Positions 3,729-49,994 of a DNA stretch of 52,092 bases are shown here, piece after piece (within the stretch, counting starts at the first letter, position 1; every line of letters starts with the position of its first letter). Where the stretch lies: assembly GCA_009691505.1 (NCBI GenBank), contig SICJ01000001.1, forward strand, positions 1 through 52,092, written 5' to 3'. The notes beneath the pieces are model-generated. The model ran no database searches and was not told where the DNA came from. It saw only the letters and a list, made by a program, of their open reading frames with translations. Position numbers and translations under genes: made by a program. This DNA is from Candidatus Parcubacteria bacterium. GTDB lineage: Bacteria > Patescibacteriota > Minisyncoccia > Phycocordibacterales > CALRHW01.

Positions 3729-3950
3729 ATGGTTGTAAGAATGCGACACACACGGGCTCATACGGGCAACAGACGTTCTCATCACGCACTAAAGATGAGG
3801 TCTCTTTCCAAGTGTCCAAAATGCAACGCTCCAAAAATGAGTCATAGAGTATGTGCAAAATGTGGTACTTATAAAGACAAAGTAGTAGTGGATACGATGG
3901 CTAAAATCACTAAACGGCAAAAAGCTAAAGAGAAAGCGGGGAAAAAGTAA
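3729..3950 (+). CDS. rpmF: 50S ribosomal protein L32
   Basis: RHTRAHTGNRRSHHAL plus CPKC...CAKCG zinc-ribbon pattern; the start could be the ATG at 3741. Confidence 0.85.
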   Translation: MVVRMRHTRAHTGNRRSHHALKMRSLSKCPKCNAPKMSHRVCAKCGTYKDKVVVDTMAKITKRQKAKEKAGKK

Positions 3951-4052
3951 AAGTGCGGAGGTGAGTAGGAGATGGGCAGAAAGTTTAAGAAAGTGAAGTT
4001 AATGTGAAAAAAGTGCGGTGCGAGTTTCAAAAGTTCTTAAAACAAAAAAATA

Positions 4053-4967
4053 ATGGCAAACAGGCATTTATCAAGATCAATAGTCACACAATCACTTTTT
4101 GAATGGGATTTCAATAAAAAAAGTGCTAAGGAGGCTATGGATATTTTTTCGCGCAACGCTAGCGAATTTGCGACTGGGACAGGTGATTTGGCATTTATGG
4201 AAAACTTGATGAAGAATGTCGTTGCAAAGAAAAAGGATTTGGACGTGATTATAGAAAAAGCCGCGCCAGATTGGCCAATTGATAAAATTTCTATTATTGA
4301 CCGCAACATTTTGCGCATTGGACTTTACGAGCTTCTTTTTGCTGACAGAAAAGAAGTGCCCCCAAAAGTGGCTATAAACGAGGCAATTGAGCTTGCAAAG
4401 ACTTTTGGTGGGGATACGAGTGGAAAGTTTGTAAACGGCGTCCTCGGTGCGGTATATAAAGAAATGGGCGAGCCGGGCAAAGACGAGACTTCAAAAAGAA
4501 AGCGTCACCCAAACATTCCAGACGACCAAGCCCCGATAGAAAAACTCGGAGGAGCTGTCGTTTTTGGAAAAGATGGCGATGACATTTATCTCGCTCTGGT
4601 GCACGATGTTTTCGGACATTGGACACTTTCAAAAGGTCATTTTGAAGAAGGGGAGGAAGATATAGCTGGAATAAAACGTGTTATAAAAGATGAGCTCGGA
4701 CTCAATATAAACGTAAAAGAAGAACTCGGTAATAATGCATATATCGCTTTTTATCCAGAGAAAGGAAAGATAAAAAAACAGGTGCACTACTACCTTGCTG
4801 AGTCAAAATTTGAAGAAATGAAATTAAAAGAAAGTGGTGGACTAGATGACGTGCGTTGGTTCAAACTCGCCGACATCCTTGACCTTAATTTTTATAATGA
4901 TATTCTGCCGACTATAACCAAGGCTATAAACATACTACTTGGGGACACCGCAAAGGGGACAAAGTAG
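4053..4967 (+). CDS. nusB: Transcription antitermination factor NusB fused to a C-terminal Nudix-fold domain
   Basis: The N-terminal ~140 aa is NusB-like (DRNILRIGLYELLF, PPKVAINEAIELAKTFGG, KFVNGVLG). The C-terminal ~140 aa is Nudix-like (WTLSKGHFEEGEEDIAGIKRVIKDELGL). Confidence 0.8.
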   Translation: MANRHLSRSIVTQSLFEWDFNKKSAKEAMDIFSRNASEFATGTGDLAFMENLMKNVVAKKKDLDVIIEKAAPDWPIDKISIIDRNILRIGLYELLFADRKEVPPKVAINEAIELAKTFGGDTSGKFVNGVLGAVYKEMGEPGKDETSKRKRHPNIPDDQAPIEKLGGAVVFGKDGDDIYLALVHDVFGHWTLSKGHFEEGEEDIAGIKRVIKDELGLNINVKEELGNNAYIAFYPEKGKIKKQVHYYLAESKFEEMKLKESGGLDDVRWFKLADILDLNFYNDILPTITKAINILLGDTAKGTK

Positions 4968-4968
4968 A

Positions 4969-4990
4969 GGCGCGCGCCTGCGGGCGCGCC
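4969..4990 (+). repeat. GC-rich hairpin 2 nt after the nusB stop (GGCGCGC-N8-GCGCGCC); shares CGCGCCTGCG with the repeat-family core
   Basis: ggcgcgcgcctgcgggcgcgcc forms a 7-bp G/C stem. No T-run follows, so it is not a canonical intrinsic terminator. Confidence 0.5.
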
Positions 4991-5027
4991 GAAAGCCCAA
5001 ACAAACATCTCAACTAAATCACCGACC

Positions 5028-5720
5028 ATGAACATAGACTTTTCAAAATTTGAAGAAAAATCCGGATTAAAATTCCGCGACAAAACGCTACTGAAACAAG
5101 CGTTTGTTCATCGTTCATATATAAACGAAAACAAAGACTCTGGTCTGGAACACAACGAACGCTTGGAATTTTTAGGTGACGCTGTACTTGAGCTTGTCAT
5201 TACAGATTATTTATACAAAGAGTATCCTGGATCAAATGAAGGTCAGATGACGAGCTTTCGTAGTGCGCTTGTGAATGCAACAACTTGCGCGCGCGTTGCC
5301 ACATCTCTTTTTGTAAATGACTTTTTACTTTTATCTCGCGGAGAAATGAAAGACACTGGTCGCGCACGACAATACATTTTGGCCAACACACTTGAAGCGA
5401 TTATAGGTGCGATTTATGTAGATCAAGGATACGAAGTTGTAAAAGAATTTATTTACAAAAATATTTCACCACTTATCGGAGATATTATTTCAAAGGGCAC
5501 ATGGATAGATTCAAAAAGTTTATTTCAGGAAAAAGCGCAGGAAATGGAAAGCACCACTCCTGCCTATAAAACAACAAAAGAAACTGGGCCTGATCACGAT
5601 AAAAGATTTACGGTGGGCGTGTATCTTGGTAAGAATCTTGTAGCTTCTGGCGAAGGGGAATCAAAACAAGATGCAGAACAAGAGGCTGCACGAAAAGGAC
5701 TTGAAAAGAAGGGGTGGTAA
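5028..5720 (+). CDS. rnc: Ribonuclease III
   Basis: ERLEFLGDAVLELVITDYLY signature and a C-terminal dsRBD (GPDHDKRFTVGVYL...GEGESKQDAEQEAA). Confidence 0.92.
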   Translation: MNIDFSKFEEKSGLKFRDKTLLKQAFVHRSYINENKDSGLEHNERLEFLGDAVLELVITDYLYKEYPGSNEGQMTSFRSALVNATTCARVATSLFVNDFLLLSRGEMKDTGRARQYILANTLEAIIGAIYVDQGYEVVKEFIYKNISPLIGDIISKGTWIDSKSLFQEKAQEMESTTPAYKTTKETGPDHDKRFTVGVYLGKNLVASGEGESKQDAEQEAARKGLEKKGW

Positions 5721-11816: not shown

Positions 11817-11943
11817 AAGGTAAATAAAATAAAAAGAGTATCTCGAAAAGCACGCGTAAAAGCCTGCTGGCTTTTCTGCTCCGCTCAGCGCTGTTGCGCC
11901 TGCGTGAGTCTTTTCTCAATACTTTTTTTATTTTATTTACCTT
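11817..11943 (+). repeat. Palindromic intergenic element, copy A (core 11850..11908)
   Basis: The ~34-nt AT-rich arms are mutually complementary and flank the core GCACGCGTAAAAGCCTGCTGGCTTTTCTGCTCCGCTCAGCGCTGTTGCGCCTGCGTGAG. It begins 5 nt after the KH-gene stop. Confidence 0.85.
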
Positions 11944-20119: not shown

Positions 20120-21877
20120 ATGTCATCCTCTGTAGATCAAATAAAAGAAAAGCTTGATATCGCCGACATTGTCGCTTCGTATATTAAACTTGAAAAAGCA
20201 GGCGGAAATTTTAAGGGAAAGTGTCCGTTTCATAATGAAAAAACTCCGTCGTTTTTCATTTCACCAGACAGAGGCACTTATTATTGTTTTGGTTGTGGTG
20301 CAAAAGGCGATATTTTTACTTTTGTTCAGGAGTTTGAAGGACTAGATTTTCGTGGTGCTTTGAAAAATCTAGCTTTGCGTGCTGGAGTAGAGCTTGGACA
20401 CGAAAATGTCGCCGAGCGAAGTGAGAAAGATCGTTTGTATTCTGTGCTTGCGCAGGCAACTTTCTTTTTTCAGAAAAAACTCTCTGAAAATGCTGATGCA
20501 AAAAATTATTTACTCGGACGCGGACTCACAGAAGAAAGTATAAAAGAATGGTCTATCGGCTACGCACCGAATGCGTGGCAAGAGCTACACGATTTTCTGC
20601 TGGGAAAAGGTTTTACAAAACCAGAGCTTGAGCGTGTAGGCTTGATCAAAAAAAGCGACAAACGTCCGGGCGAATATTATGACGTATTTCGTGGACGAAT
20701 TGTTTTTCCTATCTTTGATGTCGCAGGTAAAGTAATTGCGTTTTCTGGAAGAATTCTCGTAGACGACGGTAAGTCGCCGAAATATTTAAACACTTCAGAA
20801 ACAATTCTTTTCAACAAATCGCAGACACTTTACGGCTTACACAAAGCAAAAGTAGATATTCGTCGGAAAGATTACTGCGTGCTCGTAGAGGGACAAATGG
20901 ATCTCGTAATGGTGCATCAAGCTGGGTTTGGTAACACTATCGCTTCTTCTGGCACAGCTTTTACTGCCGAGCATCTTGGTAAGCTGGGACGTCTCTCCAA
21001 TCGTATCGTGCTCGCTTTTGACGCCGACGGCGCGGGTTTTACTGCAGCAAATAAAAGTGCACAGCTTGCCTTGTCTCTCGGAATGGAAGTGAAAATTGCA
21101 CTTTTACCAAAAGGCACCGATCCAGCTGAACTCATAAAAAATGATCCAGATAAATGGAAAAGCGCGCTTCAAAATACTATGCACATTATTGATTTCTATA
21201 TGCAATCCTTGCTCGCGCAAAATTCTGACGCGGTGAAAAAAGATCCGCGAAAGCTCGGCAAAGAAATACAAAGTAAGGTTTTACCTTATGTAAATCAGCT
21301 TCCAAGTAGTATTGAACGAGCGCACTTTGTTTCAAAGATTGCCGAGCGAGCTGGGATTAAAGAAGAAGCTGTGTGGGAGGATTTAAAAAAAACTCCAGCA
21401 TTTACACAGAATGTGCATAGTACAAATGTAGCGGGTGGAGTTGTAAACGAGGCTTTGCGTACTAGGCAAGCCGATCCATCTTTTCGTAAAAATTCAATTG
21501 AAAAAAAGATACTCGGAATAAAAATGTGGCAAGAAAGTGTGTCTAGTCCGCACATAAAATCCACCGAACTTTTACAAAAATTAAAAGACATAGTGGGCGA
21601 AGAATCAGTCTCAAAACTTCTCGCCGAGCTTGAATCTACACAAAGTGAGCTGATTTTTGAGATTGAGTCGTATTATGATAATAGCGACACACTCACAGCG
21701 GAGATAGACGAACTTTTTATGAATCTGCAGGAAGAACGCTTAAAAGAGGAGTTTACAAGAGTGATGACAGAGCTAGGAATTGCGGAAAAAAGCAAAGACG
21801 CAGAAAAGGTAAAAGAATTGCTAGAAGTTTGCCAAGAATTATCAAAAAAAATAACAGCTTTACCAAAAAAACAATAA
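20120..21877 (+). CDS. dnaG: DNA primase
   Basis: Zinc finger CPFHNEKTPSFFISPDRGTYYCFGCGAKGD and TOPRIM VLVEGQMDLV...AFDADGAG. The ORF extends to TTG 20099. Confidence 0.9.
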   Translation: MSSSVDQIKEKLDIADIVASYIKLEKAGGNFKGKCPFHNEKTPSFFISPDRGTYYCFGCGAKGDIFTFVQEFEGLDFRGALKNLALRAGVELGHENVAERSEKDRLYSVLAQATFFFQKKLSENADAKNYLLGRGLTEESIKEWSIGYAPNAWQELHDFLLGKGFTKPELERVGLIKKSDKRPGEYYDVFRGRIVFPIFDVAGKVIAFSGRILVDDGKSPKYLNTSETILFNKSQTLYGLHKAKVDIRRKDYCVLVEGQMDLVMVHQAGFGNTIASSGTAFTAEHLGKLGRLSNRIVLAFDADGAGFTAANKSAQLALSLGMEVKIALLPKGTDPAELIKNDPDKWKSALQNTMHIIDFYMQSLLAQNSDAVKKDPRKLGKEIQSKVLPYVNQLPSSIERAHFVSKIAERAGIKEEAVWEDLKKTPAFTQNVHSTNVAGGVVNEALRTRQADPSFRKNSIEKKILGIKMWQESVSSPHIKSTELLQKLKDIVGEESVSKLLAELESTQSELIFEIESYYDNSDTLTAEIDELFMNLQEERLKEEFTRVMTELGIAEKSKDAEKVKELLEVCQELSKKITALPKKQ

Positions 21878-21898
21878 TTTAAACAAGAATATAAATAT

Positions 21899-23140
21899 AT
21901 GAAAAAAAATAAAAAAACAAAAAATAAAAAGCAAGCTGTGAAAAAAGTGAAAAAAACTGGTAAAAAAAAGGCAACATTTACAAAAAAAATAAAAGTAAAA
22001 AAGTCCGCAAAGAAAACTCCTGCACAAAAATCAAAAGCTAGAGTATCAGCAAAAAAATCTCAAAAATCAAATCATAGTGTAAAACAGCTTCTCGCTAAAG
22101 GTAAAGAGCGAGGTTTCATTACTTATGATGAAATTCTAAAAGAATTCCCAACGATTGAAGACAACATTCTTTTTCTAGAAGAGCTATATTCTCAGCTTTC
22201 TGTGGCAGGAATTGATATTCTTGAAGGGGGAGGACTTCTTGATTCAAAAGACCCCGCTGATGATCCTGCAGTTAAAAAATATACTTACAATAAAGGCGAG
22301 GGTTCTCCATACGATTCTATTCAAATGTATTTAAAAGAAATTGGTCAATATCCTCTCATTTCTGGCGCGACAGAAAAAGAACTCGCAAAGAGAATTGAAA
22401 AGGGAGATGACGAAGCAAAAAATCTGCTCGCTAGGTCCAATCTACGCCTCGTGGTTTCAATCGCTAAAAAATATGTTGGAAGAAGTCCAGACTTGACGCT
22501 TCTTGATTTAATTCAAGAAGGAAACCTCGGATTATTTAAAGCTGTAGATAAATTTGATTGGACAAAAGGATACAAATTTTCTACTTATGCGACTTGGTGG
22601 ATTCGTCAGGCTATTACTCGAGCACTAGCTGATCAGTCGCGGACTATTCGTGTGCCAGTGCATATGGTGGAAACGATTGCAAAATACAAGCAAGTGGTGC
22701 GCCGACTTTCTCAAGACCTCGGACGAGATCCTTTACCAGAAGAAGTCGCGATGGAAATGAATTTGGACGTGGATAAAATTTATAATATTGAAAAAATTGA
22801 TCAGAGTACGGTATCTCTTGAAAGTCCAGTGGGTGACGATGGTGATGACGGCAAATCAACTCTCGGGGATTTTATTCCTGATGATAAAATACTTTCGCCA
22901 GACCAAGATTCTTCACGACGGATTATTTCTGATCAAGTAAAAGAACTTTTAAATAATCTTCCACCAAAAGAGCGCAGGATATTGGAAATGCGACACGGGC
23001 TTGTAGACGGTATTACTCATACTCTTGAAGAGGTGGGAAAAGAGTTTGGGGTGACTCGCGAGCGTATTAGACAGATTGAGGCAAAGGCGCATGAAAAGAT
23101 ACGACAGCATGAGAATATTGATCGTTTGAGGAATTACTAG
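21899..23140 (+). CDS. rpoD: RNA polymerase primary sigma factor with a lysine-rich N-terminal tail
   Basis: Region 2 ([16 protein letters not shown]) and region 4.2 ([22 protein letters not shown]). The first ~60 aa are K-rich. Confidence 0.9.
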
Positions 23141-23143
23141 GCA

Positions 23144-23263
23144 ACAAAAAAATAAATAAGTTGTGTTTTCAGAGCACGCGTAAATCGTTGCTACGATTTC
23201 TGCTCCGCTCGGCGCCGTCGCGCCTGCGCGAGTCTCTTAAAACACAACTTATTTATTTTTTGT
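23144..23263 (+). repeat. Palindromic intergenic element, copy B (core 23174..23232)
   Basis: The arms acaaaaaaataaataagttgtgtttt / aaaacacaacttatttattttttgt flank the conserved core. It begins 3 nt after the rpoD stop. Confidence 0.9.
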
Positions 23264-23279
23264 GACCCAGACAATTTTC

Positions 23280-23308
23280 TTGACACAAAGTCACAATAGG
23301 TGTATAGT
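23280..23308 (+). promoter_or_regulatory. Consensus sigma70-type promoter (TTGACA-17-TATAGT) of the orphan cassette
   Basis: ttgaca caaagtcacaataggtg tatagt; same architecture as the rpoB and tRNA-Ala promoters. Confidence 0.6.
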
Positions 23309-23314
23309 AGCAAA

Positions 23315-23464
23315 AGATAGAACCTTGAAACAATTTGCAAACCTCGCCATAGCCTAAAGGGCCTTAAACATAGGGCTTTCTAGGCTATGGCGACATCGTG
23401 TCGCTTGTAGTATGTTTCGTAAACCCGCCACACCTACGCAAGTAGGCAGGCATTTCACTAAAGG
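23315..23464 (+). promoter_or_regulatory. About 150-nt structured 5' leader or small RNA with three hairpins
   Basis: H1 23345..23392 has an 11-bp outer stem (CGCCATAGCCT/AGGCTATGGCG). H2 23390..23404 (GCGACA-TCG-TGTCGC) shares 3 nt with H1. H3 23427..23451 has a CCTAC-GCAA-GTAGG GNRA tetraloop. Confidence 0.45.
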
Positions 23465-23986
23465 ATGATGACGATGGACACATCGATTACATCAATCAAT
23501 AACATCTCAGAATATTTGAGGTTGGTAAGCGGCGAGGAAACCCTCGTCGTCGGTCCGACAGACGGGAAGCGTACTATCGCAGGAGAGGATAATGTTTTTA
23601 CCGGCCACATTAACTCGGATTTCAAGAGTTGGGGTCTCGATGTGAAAGGTAATCCATGTGGTCCAACGAAGGTTGCCGTCCACGAGATAATCAAGGACGG
23701 AAACTTTCAGCAAATTTTCTCTGGCCTGAGTCCTGACCTCAACAGCTTATGCTTGGAACAGGATCAGGTACTGGAATTTGTAAAGCACCGCAGTAAGTGG
23801 CTTCGCACAGACAGATACGCGACATTTTTCCTTTGCAAGGCCGACGGCGAATTCTTTGTTGCGTCTGTCTTTTTTGACGGCTACAGTCGTCTCATTGTCT
23901 CTGCCCATCGATTGTCATTTGGCCATGTCTGGTTCGCCGGGTTTCGCCTTCGTGTCGTTGTCCCGCAACTGACACTTGCAAATTAG
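23465..23986 (+). CDS. Hypothetical protein, 173 aa, no family recognised; GC-shifted
   Basis: Longest ORF between the promoter and a strong terminator, preceded by AAGG. The ATGs at 23465, 23468 and 23474 are all possible starts. No motif recognised. Confidence 0.6.
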   Translation: MMTMDTSITSINNISEYLRLVSGEETLVVGPTDGKRTIAGEDNVFTGHINSDFKSWGLDVKGNPCGPTKVAVHEIIKDGNFQQIFSGLSPDLNSLCLEQDQVLEFVKHRSKWLRTDRYATFFLCKADGEFFVASVFFDGYSRLIVSAHRLSFGHVWFAGFRLRVVVPQLTLAN

Positions 23987-24007
23987 TTTGAGCCTTTGGC
24001 TCTTTAT

Positions 24008-24068
24008 CCCTCTGACCCTTCGCCAAATTTATTTTAATTTGGCAGGGTCGGGGGGATTTTTTATTTTT
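24008..24068 (+). terminator. Strong intrinsic terminator of the orphan cassette
   Basis: CCCTCTGACCCT..GCCAAATT-TATTTT-AATTTGGC-AGGGTCGGGGGG gives about 20 bp, with two G-U pairs valid only on the + strand RNA. ATTTTTTATTTTT follows. Confidence 0.7.
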
Positions 24069-24092
24069 CCGCGAGTGTGCGACCAGTGTCTA

Positions 24093-24887
24093 TTATTTCA
24101 AAATCAAATCCACGATCGCTTTCATCATTTCGTAAGGCATTGCACCACTCACAAATATTTTTCTATTATCTTTTGATATTCCTATAAAATCATCGGAGCC
24201 CGGATAGGATTTCATTATTTGAGCATTATTAGACTCTAAAAAATCTCTCAGCTCTTTACTTGGATCTGATTTTAAAATAAATATACTATAAGGTGTTCCA
24301 GTTCCGCCATTTTGTTGCGCCTCTTTTGTGTCCTCGTCTACTGCTGTTGCAAATTTACCACTAGCTAAACAGGTGTTGAAAGCTTTTACATCCAATCCTA
24401 CCGCAGCAGCGATTTTTGGAAGTTCCGCTGGGTCAAGATTATCATTTGATTTTGTAGTTTCGTAAAGTTTATTTGTATATTCCCAAAACTTACTATTGCC
24501 ACCAAGGTCAGCGGCACACTCAAAAGCCTCTGCTTCTTTTCTAGCTTTTTTATGAAGTGAGTCTAAAGGAAAATGTCGGTAAACCCAAGTAAAATTTCCA
24601 TCTTTCCCATATTCTGAAGCAAGTTTGTTTAAAGTTACATGGAAAATTTTACAAAAAGGACACTGTGTGTCTGAATATTCCACTAGTAAAACCTTTGAGT
24701 CTGGATTTCCAAGGATGTGATCAGACATATCAATGGGCCTTATTTTTATATCAATAGCCTCTTTTTTTGATGTTAAATCTGTCGTTGTCGCAACAGTTTT
24801 ATTTTTATTACTATAAACCAGTGCCCCAGCGATGATAGCTCCAGCGATAATTATTGCGAGCGGAATTGTAAGTGAACTTTTCTCCAT
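24093..24887 (-). CDS. DsbA-family thiol:disulfide oxidoreductase, membrane-anchored
   Basis: N-terminal TM helix and a thioredoxin-fold active site YSDTQCPFCKIFH. Confidence 0.8.
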   Translation of the reverse strand: MEKSSLTIPLAIIIAGAIIAGALVYSNKNKTVATTTDLTSKKEAIDIKIRPIDMSDHILGNPDSKVLLVEYSDTQCPFCKIFHVTLNKLASEYGKDGNFTWVYRHFPLDSLHKKARKEAEAFECAADLGGNSKFWEYTNKLYETTKSNDNLDPAELPKIAAAVGLDVKAFNTCLASGKFATAVDEDTKEAQQNGGTGTPYSIFILKSDPSKELRDFLESNNAQIMKSYPGSDDFIGISKDNRKIFVSGAMPYEMMKAIVDLILK

Positions 24888-24938
24888 ATTATTAAATTAC
24901 ATTATTAATTGTTTCTATTGTATCATATAATTAATATT

Positions 24939-25730
24939 ATGATAGAGGCGATTATTTTAGGTGCGATACAGGGAATTACTGAATTTTTACCCATTTCCTC
25001 GTCTGGGCACCTTATCATTATTAGAGAAGTTTTAGGTCTCAAAAACGTAGGCTCGCTTTCTTTTGATGCAGTGCTTCAGCTCGCAACGACTCTTGCTGTT
25101 ATTGTTTATTTTTGGAAAGACTTGATCGCTCTCGTGCGTGTACGTGATACAAAAAAAAAAATTTTAATTTGGGCGATTGTGGTCGGCACAATACCAGCGG
25201 CTATTTTAGGATTTATATTTGAGCAAAAGATAGACTCTGTTTTTAGAAACGCTCACACTGTCGCTTGGGCGCTTATTGCCGGAAGTGTTTTGTTTTTTAT
25301 CGCAGAAAGATATTCGGCTCAGAGAGCGTTAAAAAATATAGATGCGGGTCTTATCGGTCAGCAAAAAGAGCTTTCTGTTTTGCGCGGTTTTTGGGTAGGC
25401 TGTTTTCAGGTGCTCGCCTTAATTCCAGGAATGTCGCGTTCTGGTAGCACGATTTCTGGCGGTTTGCTCACAGGCATGAAAAGGGAAGAAGTAGTACGTT
25501 TTAGTTTTTTGCTTTCAGTGCCGATTCTTCTGGGTTCTGGTCTAAAAAAGCTTTTTGATCTCGGCGCGTCTGGCACGGTAGACACTTCTCTTGTTGTCGG
25601 CTCACTTGTCGCGTTTGTTGTCGGACTTGCTTCTATTCATTTTTTAATTAAATATCTACAAAAACATACACTTAATGTGTTTATTGTTTATAGGATTTTA
25701 CTTGCGGTGGTTGTGTTGCTGTTTTTATAG
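24939..25730 (+). CDS. uppP: Undecaprenyl-diphosphate phosphatase
   Basis: GITEFLPISSSGHL and PGMSRSGSTISGG motifs; polytopic membrane protein. The ORF extends to TTG 24909. Confidence 0.9.
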   Translation: MIEAIILGAIQGITEFLPISSSGHLIIIREVLGLKNVGSLSFDAVLQLATTLAVIVYFWKDLIALVRVRDTKKKILIWAIVVGTIPAAILGFIFEQKIDSVFRNAHTVAWALIAGSVLFFIAERYSAQRALKNIDAGLIGQQKELSVLRGFWVGCFQVLALIPGMSRSGSTISGGLLTGMKREEVVRFSFLLSVPILLGSGLKKLFDLGASGTVDTSLVVGSLVAFVVGLASIHFLIKYLQKHTLNVFIVYRILLAVVVLLFL

Positions 25731-25742
25731 GGCAAAGATGAG

Positions 25743-26321
25743 TTAAAACGGCAAGGTAAATGTCATCGCATCACCACTGTCTTTTTTCTCCCAGTTGGAA
25801 GTATCTAGTTTGATATCAATGATAGCATTTCCTTCTTTAAATTTTAACGCGTTGTTTTTTAGCGCGTATTCGTAAACGTCTTTTGTGATTTTTACGTCGT
25901 CCAGACAGTATTTTTTTACTTTTTCATATTCGCCTTTTGCCCACCACATCGTAGCTTCCAGTCCGTGTCCAGATTTTCTGACGCCGAGTGTGCCCTCGGC
26001 TATCTGGTCTAGTTTCATCCTTCGTCCAAAACTATTTTTTATTTCTTTTAAAATATCTACGTGACGGATTTTACCGAGGTCGCCTTGATAATATTTATTT
26101 AAAAGAGGTAAGTCAAAATGCTCGGAATTAAAACCGATAAGTAAATCCGCTTTTTCCAAAATAGGCCATAGCTTGCCGAGGTCTTTTTGTTCAAAGGCAG
26201 TATAAGAGTCGGTTTCAGAATCATAAATTCCCACCACAGAAATGTCCAAAAGAGAGGGGTCGTTTTTACCAACGTCAGAAAAAAGATTACTTGTTTCAAT
26301 ATCAAAGACTATTTTTCTCAT
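25743..26321 (-). CDS. Stand-alone DEDDy-type 3'-5' exonuclease domain protein
   Basis: ExoI VFDIETSN, ExoII GFNSEHFDLPLL and ExoIII YCLDDVKITKDVY. The ORF extends to GTG 26348. Confidence 0.65.
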   Translation of the reverse strand: MRKIVFDIETSNLFSDVGKNDPSLLDISVVGIYDSETDSYTAFEQKDLGKLWPILEKADLLIGFNSEHFDLPLLNKYYQGDLGKIRHVDILKEIKNSFGRRMKLDQIAEGTLGVRKSGHGLEATMWWAKGEYEKVKKYCLDDVKITKDVYEYALKNNALKFKEGNAIIDIKLDTSNWEKKDSGDAMTFTLPF

Positions 26322-27675: not shown

Positions 27676-27793
27676 CCGCAAAACTCAAAAATACTTTTAA
27701 AATGCACGCGTAAATCGTTGCTACGATTTCTGCTCCGCTCGGCGCCGTCCTCGCCTGCGCGAGACATTTGAAAATCATTTATGAGTTTTACGG
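27676..27793 (+). repeat. Palindromic intergenic element, copy C (core 27704..27763), in the hisS/truB divergent region
   Basis: The arms ccgcaaaactcaaaaatacttttaaaatg / acatttgaaaatcatttatgagttttacgg flank the conserved core. The right arm overlaps the TTG-initiated 5' end of the truB ORF. Confidence 0.85.
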
Positions 27794-28624: not shown

Positions 28625-28721
28625 CAAAATAGCTTTTGAAAAGACTCGCACAGGCGCGTCGGCGCCGAGCGGAGCAGAAATCCCAGCGGGGATTTACGCG
28701 TGCTTTTCAAAAGCTATTTTG
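28625..28721 (-). repeat. Palindromic intergenic element, copy D, inverted orientation (core 28645..28703)
   Basis: The 19-nt arms caaaatagcttttgaaaag / cttttcaaaagctattttg flank the reverse-complemented core. It lies between the convergent truB and typA stops. Confidence 0.9.
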
Positions 28722-45686: not shown

Positions 45687-45826
45687 AAATAAAAAATAAA
45701 ATAAGACTTGTATTTATAAATGCACGCGTAAATCGTTGCTACGATTTATGCTCCGCTCGGCGCCGTCGCGCCTGTGCGAGGCATTTTTAAACACAAGTCT
45801 TATTTTATTTTTATTTTTTTGTTTCT
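45687..45826 (+). repeat. Palindromic intergenic element, copy E (core 45722..45780)
   Basis: The ~35-nt arms aaataaaaaataaaataagacttgtatttataaatg / gcatttttaaacacaagtcttattttatttttattt flank the core. It starts immediately after the response-regulator stop. Confidence 0.9.
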
Positions 45827-49877: not shown

Positions 49878-49994
49878 CAAACTTTTAAAACATCGTCTGA
49901 AAAGCACGCGTAAAAATCTGCTGATTTTTCTGCTCCGCTCGGCGCCGCCCTCGCCTGCGCGAGTCTTTTCATACAATGTTTTATAAAGTTTGTT
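49876..49994 (+). repeat. Palindromic intergenic element, copy F (core 49904..49963)
   Basis: The arms aacaaacttttaaaacatcgtctgaaaag / tcttttcatacaatgttttataaagtttgtt flank the core. The left arm overlaps the uvrC stop codon. Confidence 0.9.

Follow-up and report, generated by a model that had tools for sequence, protein, structure and literature searches.

The 52,092-nt stretch of a Candidatus Parcubacteria bacterium analysed here (GenBank assembly GCA_009691505.1, contig SICJ01000001.1; hereafter the window) contains a 324-nt gap with rpoD (21899-23140) on its upstream side and a 173-codon open reading frame (ORF; 23465-23986) on its downstream side. What is the function of the promoter and the structured leader that occupy this gap, and what kind of gene do they serve? 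A preliminary description, made from the sequence alone, had proposed either a promoter-driven structured leader of the ORF or an RNA with a role of its own, and had not recognized the ORF as a variable-protein gene of a diversity-generating retroelement (DGR). We consider it probable, with some reserve, that the region consists of a promoter and a 5' leader of about 160 nt, a conserved cis-acting RNA that controls the initiation of translation of a DGR target gene. The leader probably also sets the fate of the mRNA.

The sigma-70-type promoter, TTGACA-17-TATAGT (23280..23308, + strand; -35 TTGACA at 23280-23285 and -10 TATAGT at 23303-23308), is present where it had been reported. It matches 11 of the 12 consensus positions and is the sole site scoring above 9/12 within 21000-26000. 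Transcription would start near 23314-23316. The minimum free energy of the resulting transcript was -54.3 kcal/mol, compared with -36.2 +/- 3.5 in 200 dinucleotide shuffles (z = -5.1), none of which folded as well. The hairpins that had been named H1, H2 and H3 (the last with a GCAA loop), the AAGG motif and the three ATGs (23465, 23468 and 23474) were all found in place. H1, the core hairpin (23344..23393, + strand), is formed by arms 23344-23366 and 23371-23393 and consists of 13 bp, a 1x1 internal loop, 9 bp and a 4-nt loop; its pair probability in the window ensemble was about 1.0. H3, an accessory hairpin with a GCAA tetraloop (23427..23451, + strand), lies in an A/C-rich linker and reached about 0.99. 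The small hairpin H2, GCGACA-TCG-TGTCGC (23390..23404, + strand), reached at most 0.33, because H1 wins the three bases for which both hairpins compete. The Shine-Dalgarno sequence AAAGGA follows at 23460..23465 (+ strand), and its family consensus, GAAAGGAUGAUAACGAUG, is conserved.

We then asked which parts of this leader are shared with homologues of the downstream gene. Two covariance models were used, R1 for H1 and R2 for the whole leader. R1 gave + strand matches in about 45 loci and R2 matched about 50 of the approximately 155 loci, in every case at a distance of 36-76 nt ahead of the start codon; at these sites the scores on the - strand were much lower than those on the + strand. According to blastn and both models, the leader is shared even with genes that are just 40-55% identical in protein, and blastn with the leader matched the H1 region upstream of family genes with 54% protein identity (L018 and L014). 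In one locus (L104) the leader also stands in front of a tandem paralogue. The equivalent promoter scored 11-12/12 in 25 of the 35 leader entries scored, and H1 always fell inside the transcript that this promoter sets; a near-consensus sigma-70 promoter, as predicted from these sites, is thus conserved across the gene family. Three exact 17-mer matches occurred in viral contigs, none of them recognized by the covariance model.

As judged from these alignments, the approximately 50 related loci have a common leader plan that runs from the promoter through the start-site hairpin: promoter, 5' element, H1, GAAGAGUCCAGCAAAC directly after H1, A/C-rich linker with an optional hairpin, GAAAGGAUGAUAACGAUG and initiation hairpin. 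The linker has a median length of 41 nt and is 67% A+C, and nucleotides within it are conserved. Some features of the window are not part of this plan. H2 is lineage-specific and outside the conserved motif, occurring only in the window, in its syntenic close relative (L002-L005) and, altered, in L018; the other leaders mostly carry GAAGAGUCCAGCAAAC in its place. The mutually exclusive H1/H2 switch of the preliminary description is therefore not upheld, H2 being both confined to these few leaders and weak in the ensemble. H3, which had been described with its GNRA loop, is stable in the window, but it is optional in the family: about two-thirds of the leaders have a hairpin at this position, 7 of 31 have a GNRA loop and about ten lack the hairpin. 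The conserved Shine-Dalgarno region and promoter, on the other hand, back the earlier reading of a promoter-driven structured 5' leader of the ORF, the part of that interpretation which stood.

The core of the conserved structure is H1. In 37 sequences aligned to the covariance model, 94.1% of the cells were paired and 17 of the 21 pairs showed compensatory changes (117 cells); none of 500 shuffles reached any of the observed measures. Sliding the partner strand by 1-3 columns reduced pairing to about 40%, and RNAalifold recovered the same helix from an independent MAFFT alignment. Conservation of the hairpins with covariation upstream of homologous ORFs, which had been suggested as a check, was thus observed for H1. 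Its lower stem, UUCGCCAYAGC / GCUGUGGCGAA, is conserved, and the family form also has three covarying pairs and two 1x1 internal loops around an A-U/G-U step. The apex is free in sequence and length, with long insertions in L094, L019 and L009.

The outer arms form an almost perfect inverted repeat of conserved sequence within a cassette that seems mobile, features that would also suit an element acting as DNA, such as a cruciform, a mobile-element terminus or the operator bound by a dimeric repressor. The composition of the pairs argues otherwise. H1 contained 99 G-U cells vs 28 A-C cells, two positions were G-U in most sequences, and pairing on the - strand was 84.9%, below the + strand value. 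The excess of G-U and the fixed G-U pairs indicate that H1 is a + strand RNA helix and not a DNA dyad. Furthermore, the variable apex covaries and stays paired despite the insertions, and the site always lies downstream of the promoter. We regard action at the DNA level as highly improbable.

As an RNA helix, H1 could be mainly an element of mRNA processing or stability, cut by RNase III or serving as a 5' stabilizer, that sets the half-life without a dedicated regulator. With its 22-25 bp in a near-perfect helix of about two turns and its small internal loops, it has the geometry of an RNase III site, and the freedom of the apex, including the insertions mentioned above, suggests that the helix itself matters. 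However, the sequence of the lower stem and specific G-U wobbles are kept beyond the needs of a helix, and H1 starts about 30 nt from the predicted 5' end, which is far for a classical 5' stabilizer. A role limited to processing would also leave unexplained a second, separately conserved hairpin over the Shine-Dalgarno sequence and AUG. We consider this explanation rather unlikely. In the reading that we prefer, H1 would be a recognition site, because its sequence, wobble pairs and internal loops are all kept. No claim is made for additional helices flanking H1 (UUGC...GCAA), whose pairing was inconsistent across sequences.

The second conserved hairpin, which the preliminary description did not list, covers the initiation site (23464..23493, + strand). 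It has the form GAUG.UGACGAUG[GACA]CAUCG.UUACAUC and is predicted in nearly all family leaders. It encloses the first seven codons, and within it codons 3-7 pair with the AUG, the spacer and the 3' half of the Shine-Dalgarno sequence. Over 35 sequences, outliers included, 81.9% of the cells were paired and 11 of 12 pairs showed a compensatory change; 0-2 of 500 shuffles reached the observed values, and pairing after sliding was 21-39%. Examples of compensatory change are UAA/UUA to CAA/UUG, CGAUG/CAUCG to CAAUG/CAUUG and CGA.../...UCG to CGG.../...CCG, and two loci (L051 and L061) build the same shape from entirely different sequences. The unpaired probability of the AUG at 23474 was 0.01 in the window, as was the family median. 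These results show that base pairing over the Shine-Dalgarno sequence and the start codon is conserved, as in a leader that sequesters its translation start.

A further element lies within the first 10-15 nt of the transcript. It reads AGAACCUUGAA in the window (23319..23329, + strand), resembles an anti-Shine-Dalgarno sequence and has the family consensus AG[U/A][U/A]C[U/C]UU[G/A]A, with variants AGUUCUUUGA and AGAACCUU; its AG..C.UU core was nearly invariant in 37 leaders. When 154 registers were tested, UCYUU:AAGGA was the best, with 80.5% paired vs a median of 43%, and the pair probability of CCUU:AAGG in the window was about 0.65. It is plausible, from these values, that the 5' element pairs with the Shine-Dalgarno sequence.

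A conserved structured leader followed by a conserved hairpin that sequesters the ribosome-binding site is also what a riboswitch would look like, with H1, the linker and H3 as the aptamer and the Shine-Dalgarno/AUG hairpin as the expression platform. The linker nucleotides GAAGAGUCCAGCAAAC are conserved, and the GNRA loops of some members could make tertiary contacts. Yet RNAalifold and the covariance-model alignments gave a single long upstream helix, with conservation in the stems rather than in junctions or loops; H3 is optional, the H1/H2 overlap is not conserved, and neither a multi-helix junction nor a pseudoknot nor an alternative anti-sequestor pairing was detected. In addition, the gene encodes a hypervariable DGR protein, not a metabolic or transport function, and the leader has no Rfam match. 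We find a riboswitch improbable.

A strong promoter followed by stable hairpins could also belong to a small RNA with a function of its own, to an RNA antitoxin or guide, or to a transcription attenuator. These roles, which the preliminary description had raised as well, were not supported by the analysis. A terminator scan found no terminator-like site in 23300-23470, that is, ahead of the ORF, and no U-tract follows H1 either in the window or in the family consensus, where GAAGAGUCCAGCAAAC stands instead. The distance to the start codon stays within the narrow range given above, and a promoter scan found no antisense promoter at the locus. We think that any of these roles is scarcely credible. 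A short frame that starts inside the 3' arm of H1 has neither a Shine-Dalgarno sequence nor a conserved stop; a leader peptide from the GUG/AUG in this arm was rejected on these grounds and because its start is buried in the helix.

What gene does the leader precede? The mechanical ORF call begins at 23465, but the ATG at 23474 (MDTSITS...) is the likely start codon, as indicated by the nucleotide conservation around it, and two homologues (P0001 and P0002) begin at an equivalent MDPSITS; this leaves an ORF of 170 amino acids (aa; 23474..23986, + strand). In the protein collection, 30 homologues of the ORF were found, most of them 210-240 aa long; Pfam, NCBIfam and PHROG gave no match. In most homologues the first 8 residues are followed by an additional segment of about 65 residues, which is missing from the window protein. 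The leader as a decayed N-terminal coding region was considered and rejected: the window protein keeps the first 8 codons of the family and lacks an internal segment of about 65 aa. The ratio of nonsynonymous to synonymous substitution rates (dN/dS) of the window ORF was 0.25-0.35, indicating that the gene is under selection, and a pseudogene was rejected for the window on this basis.

In one homologous locus (L008), a repeat downstream of the gene matches its 3'-terminal 119 nt at 85%, and adenines of the repeat account for 18 of the 19 mismatches, as between the variable repeat (VR) and the template repeat (TR) of a DGR. TR/VR pairs were also found in L014, L150 and L071. Of the 160 fetched loci, all of which are labelled as Patescibacteria-type metagenome-assembled genomes (MAGs), bar a few evident mislabels, 71 have an RVT_1 gene about 850 nt downstream. 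The adenine-specific mismatches and the nearby reverse transcriptase (RT) in relatives identify the family as DGR variable proteins, and by its sequence relationships the window ORF is a member of this family in Patescibacteria. In the window, the VR equivalent occupies 23853..23971 (+ strand) and, compared with the TR of L008, differs at 23 of 30 TR-adenine positions vs 20 of 89 other positions. Neither an RT nor a TR was found anywhere in the 52-kb window, so that the window copy is, as far as the sequence tells, an orphan or remote DGR target. In one RT-linked locus, L014, the interval between TR and RT contains a bAvd-like ORF (4926-5207) whose PF22296 match, with E 2e-7, falls short of the Pfam cut-off; this ORF lies on the - strand and is read in the direction opposite to target and RT.

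The 3' end of the gene is conserved as well. The VR equivalent ends in an GTTGTCCCGCAACTG sequence (23957-23971) that resembles an initiation of mutagenic homing (IMH) element and is also conserved at this end in RT-linked loci. After the stop codon come 3' elements (23990..24069, + strand) comprising a hairpin, GAGCC-TTT-GGCTC (23990-24002), and a long GC-rich terminator-like hairpin with a T-run (24008-24069); family loci, whether RT-linked or orphan, have near-identical elements at this place. Over 23957-24069 and its equivalents in about 20 loci, the order is GTTGTCCCGCAACTG, hairpin GAGCC-UUU-GGCUC, then CAGUCCCUCUGACCC...GGGUCAGGGGGAUUUUU. The region 3' of the VR is probably a DGR target-recognition element together with a terminator, and this DNA element seems to determine the conserved C-terminal peptide, VVPQL.

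A confident AlphaFold2 model of the window protein had a mean predicted local distance difference test score (pLDDT) of 89 and a predicted template modelling score (pTM) of 0.85. Foldseek found no match to this model in PDB (best E 0.33) or BFVD (best E 0.17), and no C-type lectin or Ig-like fold was recognized. The predicted structure suggests that the family may represent a DGR scaffold distinct from both the C-type lectin and the Ig-like folds.

Two observations concern variation of the gene between strains. The window ORF is a recombination mosaic relative to L002 (5001-5513) and L001: L001 matches the window over the first two-thirds of the ORF, and L002 matches it in the VR. Flanks and leader are about 93-100% identical between strains and the middle of the gene is 59-79% identical, with a synonymous divergence (dS) of about 1.2; this mid-gene divergence lies outside the VR and was thus not made by DGR mutagenesis. 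Secondly, a deletion of 342 bp is present in L011 (at 3930-4001, corresponding to window 23212-23555), a MAG of the L002 population whose flanks are 100% and 99.9% identical. The deletion takes half of an interspersed repeat, the promoter, the entire leader and the first ~27 codons, and leaves a promoterless, 5'-truncated gene.

Could the leader act in the DGR process itself, with RT-Avd or the variable protein binding H1 and thereby coupling retrohoming to the target transcript? The motif occurs almost exclusively with DGR variable-protein genes, both ends of the target cassette (the leader and the 3' elements) are conserved as a unit, and in L150, L071 and L034 the motif stands before other small ORFs or at the end of the locus, near a DGR or an orphan target. 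Against such a role, the leader is kept in loci without an RT within 4 kb, the window included, no H1-like element was found near TRs, and no recurrent sequence complementary to the leader was found in DGR cassettes, for which reason an RNA pairing in trans between leader and TR/RT region was also rejected. Known DGR target recognition, moreover, relies on elements 3' of the VR. We judge a function of the leader in retrohoming to be quite improbable.

Apart from the family genes, H1-like hairpins with a promoter and a Shine-Dalgarno sequence precede unrelated small ORFs a few kb from DGR cassettes (L150, 1193-1801; L071, 7652-8357; L034/L117, 8400-8468). These ORFs, of 155 aa and at least 197 aa, have no family match; those of L150 and L071 show no detectable homology to the family, and the L150 ORF is unlike the local TR. 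The hairpins in L150 and L071 indicate that the motif is not strictly bound to one protein family, and the sequences hint at a small set of genes that share the leader.

Taken together, we propose the following working model for the leader as a cis-acting control of translation initiation. The near-consensus sigma-70 promoter would give strong transcription. The ribosome-binding site would be locked twice, by pairing of the 5' CCUU/UCUUU with AAGG and by the 23464-23493 hairpin over the remainder of the site, the spacer, the AUG and seven codons, and expression would by default be off. H1 would be the docking site for a putative trans-acting factor, most probably a protein and perhaps RNase III, and the A/C-rich linker is a candidate region for ribosome standby or loading. 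Together, the H1 factor and the linker would decide how often the locked initiation site opens. A more specific version, which is speculative and in our estimate unlikely, has H1 bound by a DGR-encoded or DGR-diversified protein (Avd-RT or the N-terminal domain of the variable protein), so that the freshly rewritten protein would be gated or would regulate itself.

Several points weigh against this interpretation. The start of transcription was placed from the position of the promoter only. Between the window and its 93%-identical relative (L002-L005; flanks about 93% and leader 93-95% identical), conservation of the leader does not exceed that of the flanking genes, so this pair is of little informative value; one exception is L003, where a C-to-U change in H1 keeps a G-U pair. 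Only about one-third of the family loci have this leader, the rest having different, unrelated structured leaders. The cassette, which is found in varied genomic contexts and has a GC content above that of its flanks in the window, appears horizontally mobile, so that recent transfer could explain part of the sequence conservation. For the pairing of the 5' element with the Shine-Dalgarno sequence, the bases are mostly invariant, outside the reach of covariation, and the duplex energy is marginally better than in shuffles (-4.5 vs -3.6 kcal/mol); this is why we call the pairing plausible and not proven. The initiation hairpin overlaps the coding sequence, and codon constraint adds to its conservation. 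Finally, no anti-sequestering alternative pairing was found for the 23464-23493 hairpin.

How does this leader compare with known RNAs? The preliminary description had been unable to match it to an RNA family, and this was confirmed: with Rfam 15 at gathering score, only a tRNA passes across the window, and ten other family loci give only tRNAs. In E-value mode over 23100-23600, three low-scoring matches were obtained, all within 23134-23290 and none over the hairpins. A literature search gave nothing relevant on a DGR-target leader or on such a motif in Patescibacteria. The type of leader, with sequestration of the Shine-Dalgarno sequence and AUG and a probable protein-binding hairpin, is already well known; the RNA motif itself is new as judged from Rfam and the papers searched. 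In the translational operators of MS2 replicase, of ribosomal-protein genes and of phage T4, a hairpin likewise encloses the ribosome-binding site and AUG, and H1, as a conserved helix in which non-Watson-Crick features are fixed, has the look of a protein-binding site. Unlike these operators, the present leader has two parts, H1 and the initiation hairpin, about 40-70 nt apart, its binding protein is only putative, and it shares no sequence similarity with the described examples.

The leader also resembles the mRNAs of tisB and of type I toxins such as aapA1, which are translationally inert and highly structured, with an upstream ribosome standby site. They too have a CU-rich 5' anti-Shine-Dalgarno sequence, a structured initiation region and an unstructured A/C-rich upstream stretch. 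In contrast, the product here is a DGR variable protein of 170-240 aa with a globular model and not a small membrane toxin, and neither an antisense RNA nor an antisense promoter was found; a type I toxin-antitoxin mRNA was accordingly not supported. The leaders of ompA, lambda N and adhE similarly have a long stable 5' untranslated region (UTR) helix upstream of a structured ribosome-binding site; in the present family, unlike in those leaders, the sequence and wobbles of the stem are conserved across distant hosts and the hairpin is not at the extreme 5' end.

Conserved structured non-coding elements are known from DGR cassettes, namely the IMH with the hairpin 3' of the VR and the RT-10 RNA motif, which sits between TR and RT (PMC5737381). 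Their functions are in cDNA synthesis or homing, and they are located either where the VR ends on its 3' side or beside the TR/RT; the window keeps the 3' IMH-like sequence and hairpin. The leader differs from them in that it is located in the 5' UTR of the target gene, is also present in loci without an RT and does not match the Rfam motifs RT-1 to RT-19.

Elsewhere in the window, rpoD is preceded by rpoC and dnaG, and the ORF is followed by a convergent DsbA-like gene and then by uppP/bacA. An interspersed intergenic repeat is present in six copies in the 52 kb (23147-23261; ~45691-45812; 27704-27763; 28635-28704, on the - strand; 49903-49975; 11849-11914). Its core of about 60 nt reads GCACGCGUAAA-[small hairpin]-UUCUGCUCCGCUCGGCGCCGUCGCGCCUGCGCGAG, and the small hairpin shows covariation from copy to copy (AUCG/CGAU, UCCC/GGGA, AAUC/GAUU, AGCC/GGCU). 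Two of the copies have long A/T-rich inverted repeats on either side of the core. The repeat has no Rfam match at gathering score. A match to MIR4208 over the 23134-23272 copy (33.4 bits, gathering 140) was rejected as the effect of a long inverted repeat rather than homology. The repeat could be an element resembling repetitive extragenic palindromes (REP) or miniature inverted-repeat transposable elements (MITE), a terminator module or a small RNA. The only segment, other than the middle of the variable-protein gene, that aligned poorly between the window and L003 was 21945-22040, an A-rich stretch in the N-terminal part of rpoD (region 1.1 and linker) with 54-74% identity and indels.

DGRs are the most extreme natural systems of protein diversification and are very common in Patescibacteria. 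To our knowledge, almost nothing has been established on the expression of DGR variable proteins, and we know of very few characterized regulatory RNAs in Patescibacteria. With the leader described here, DGR target genes have their first candidate for a conserved regulatory RNA. It adds an undescribed RNA motif to the Patescibacteria and draws attention to a variable-protein family in whose predicted structure the usual C-type lectin fold was not recognized. A covarying leader that would lock the ribosome-binding site and accompanies its target gene in many genomes provides a testable handle on the expression of DGR proteins. If H1 is indeed recognized by a DGR protein, it would be the first RNA control element for DGR targets.

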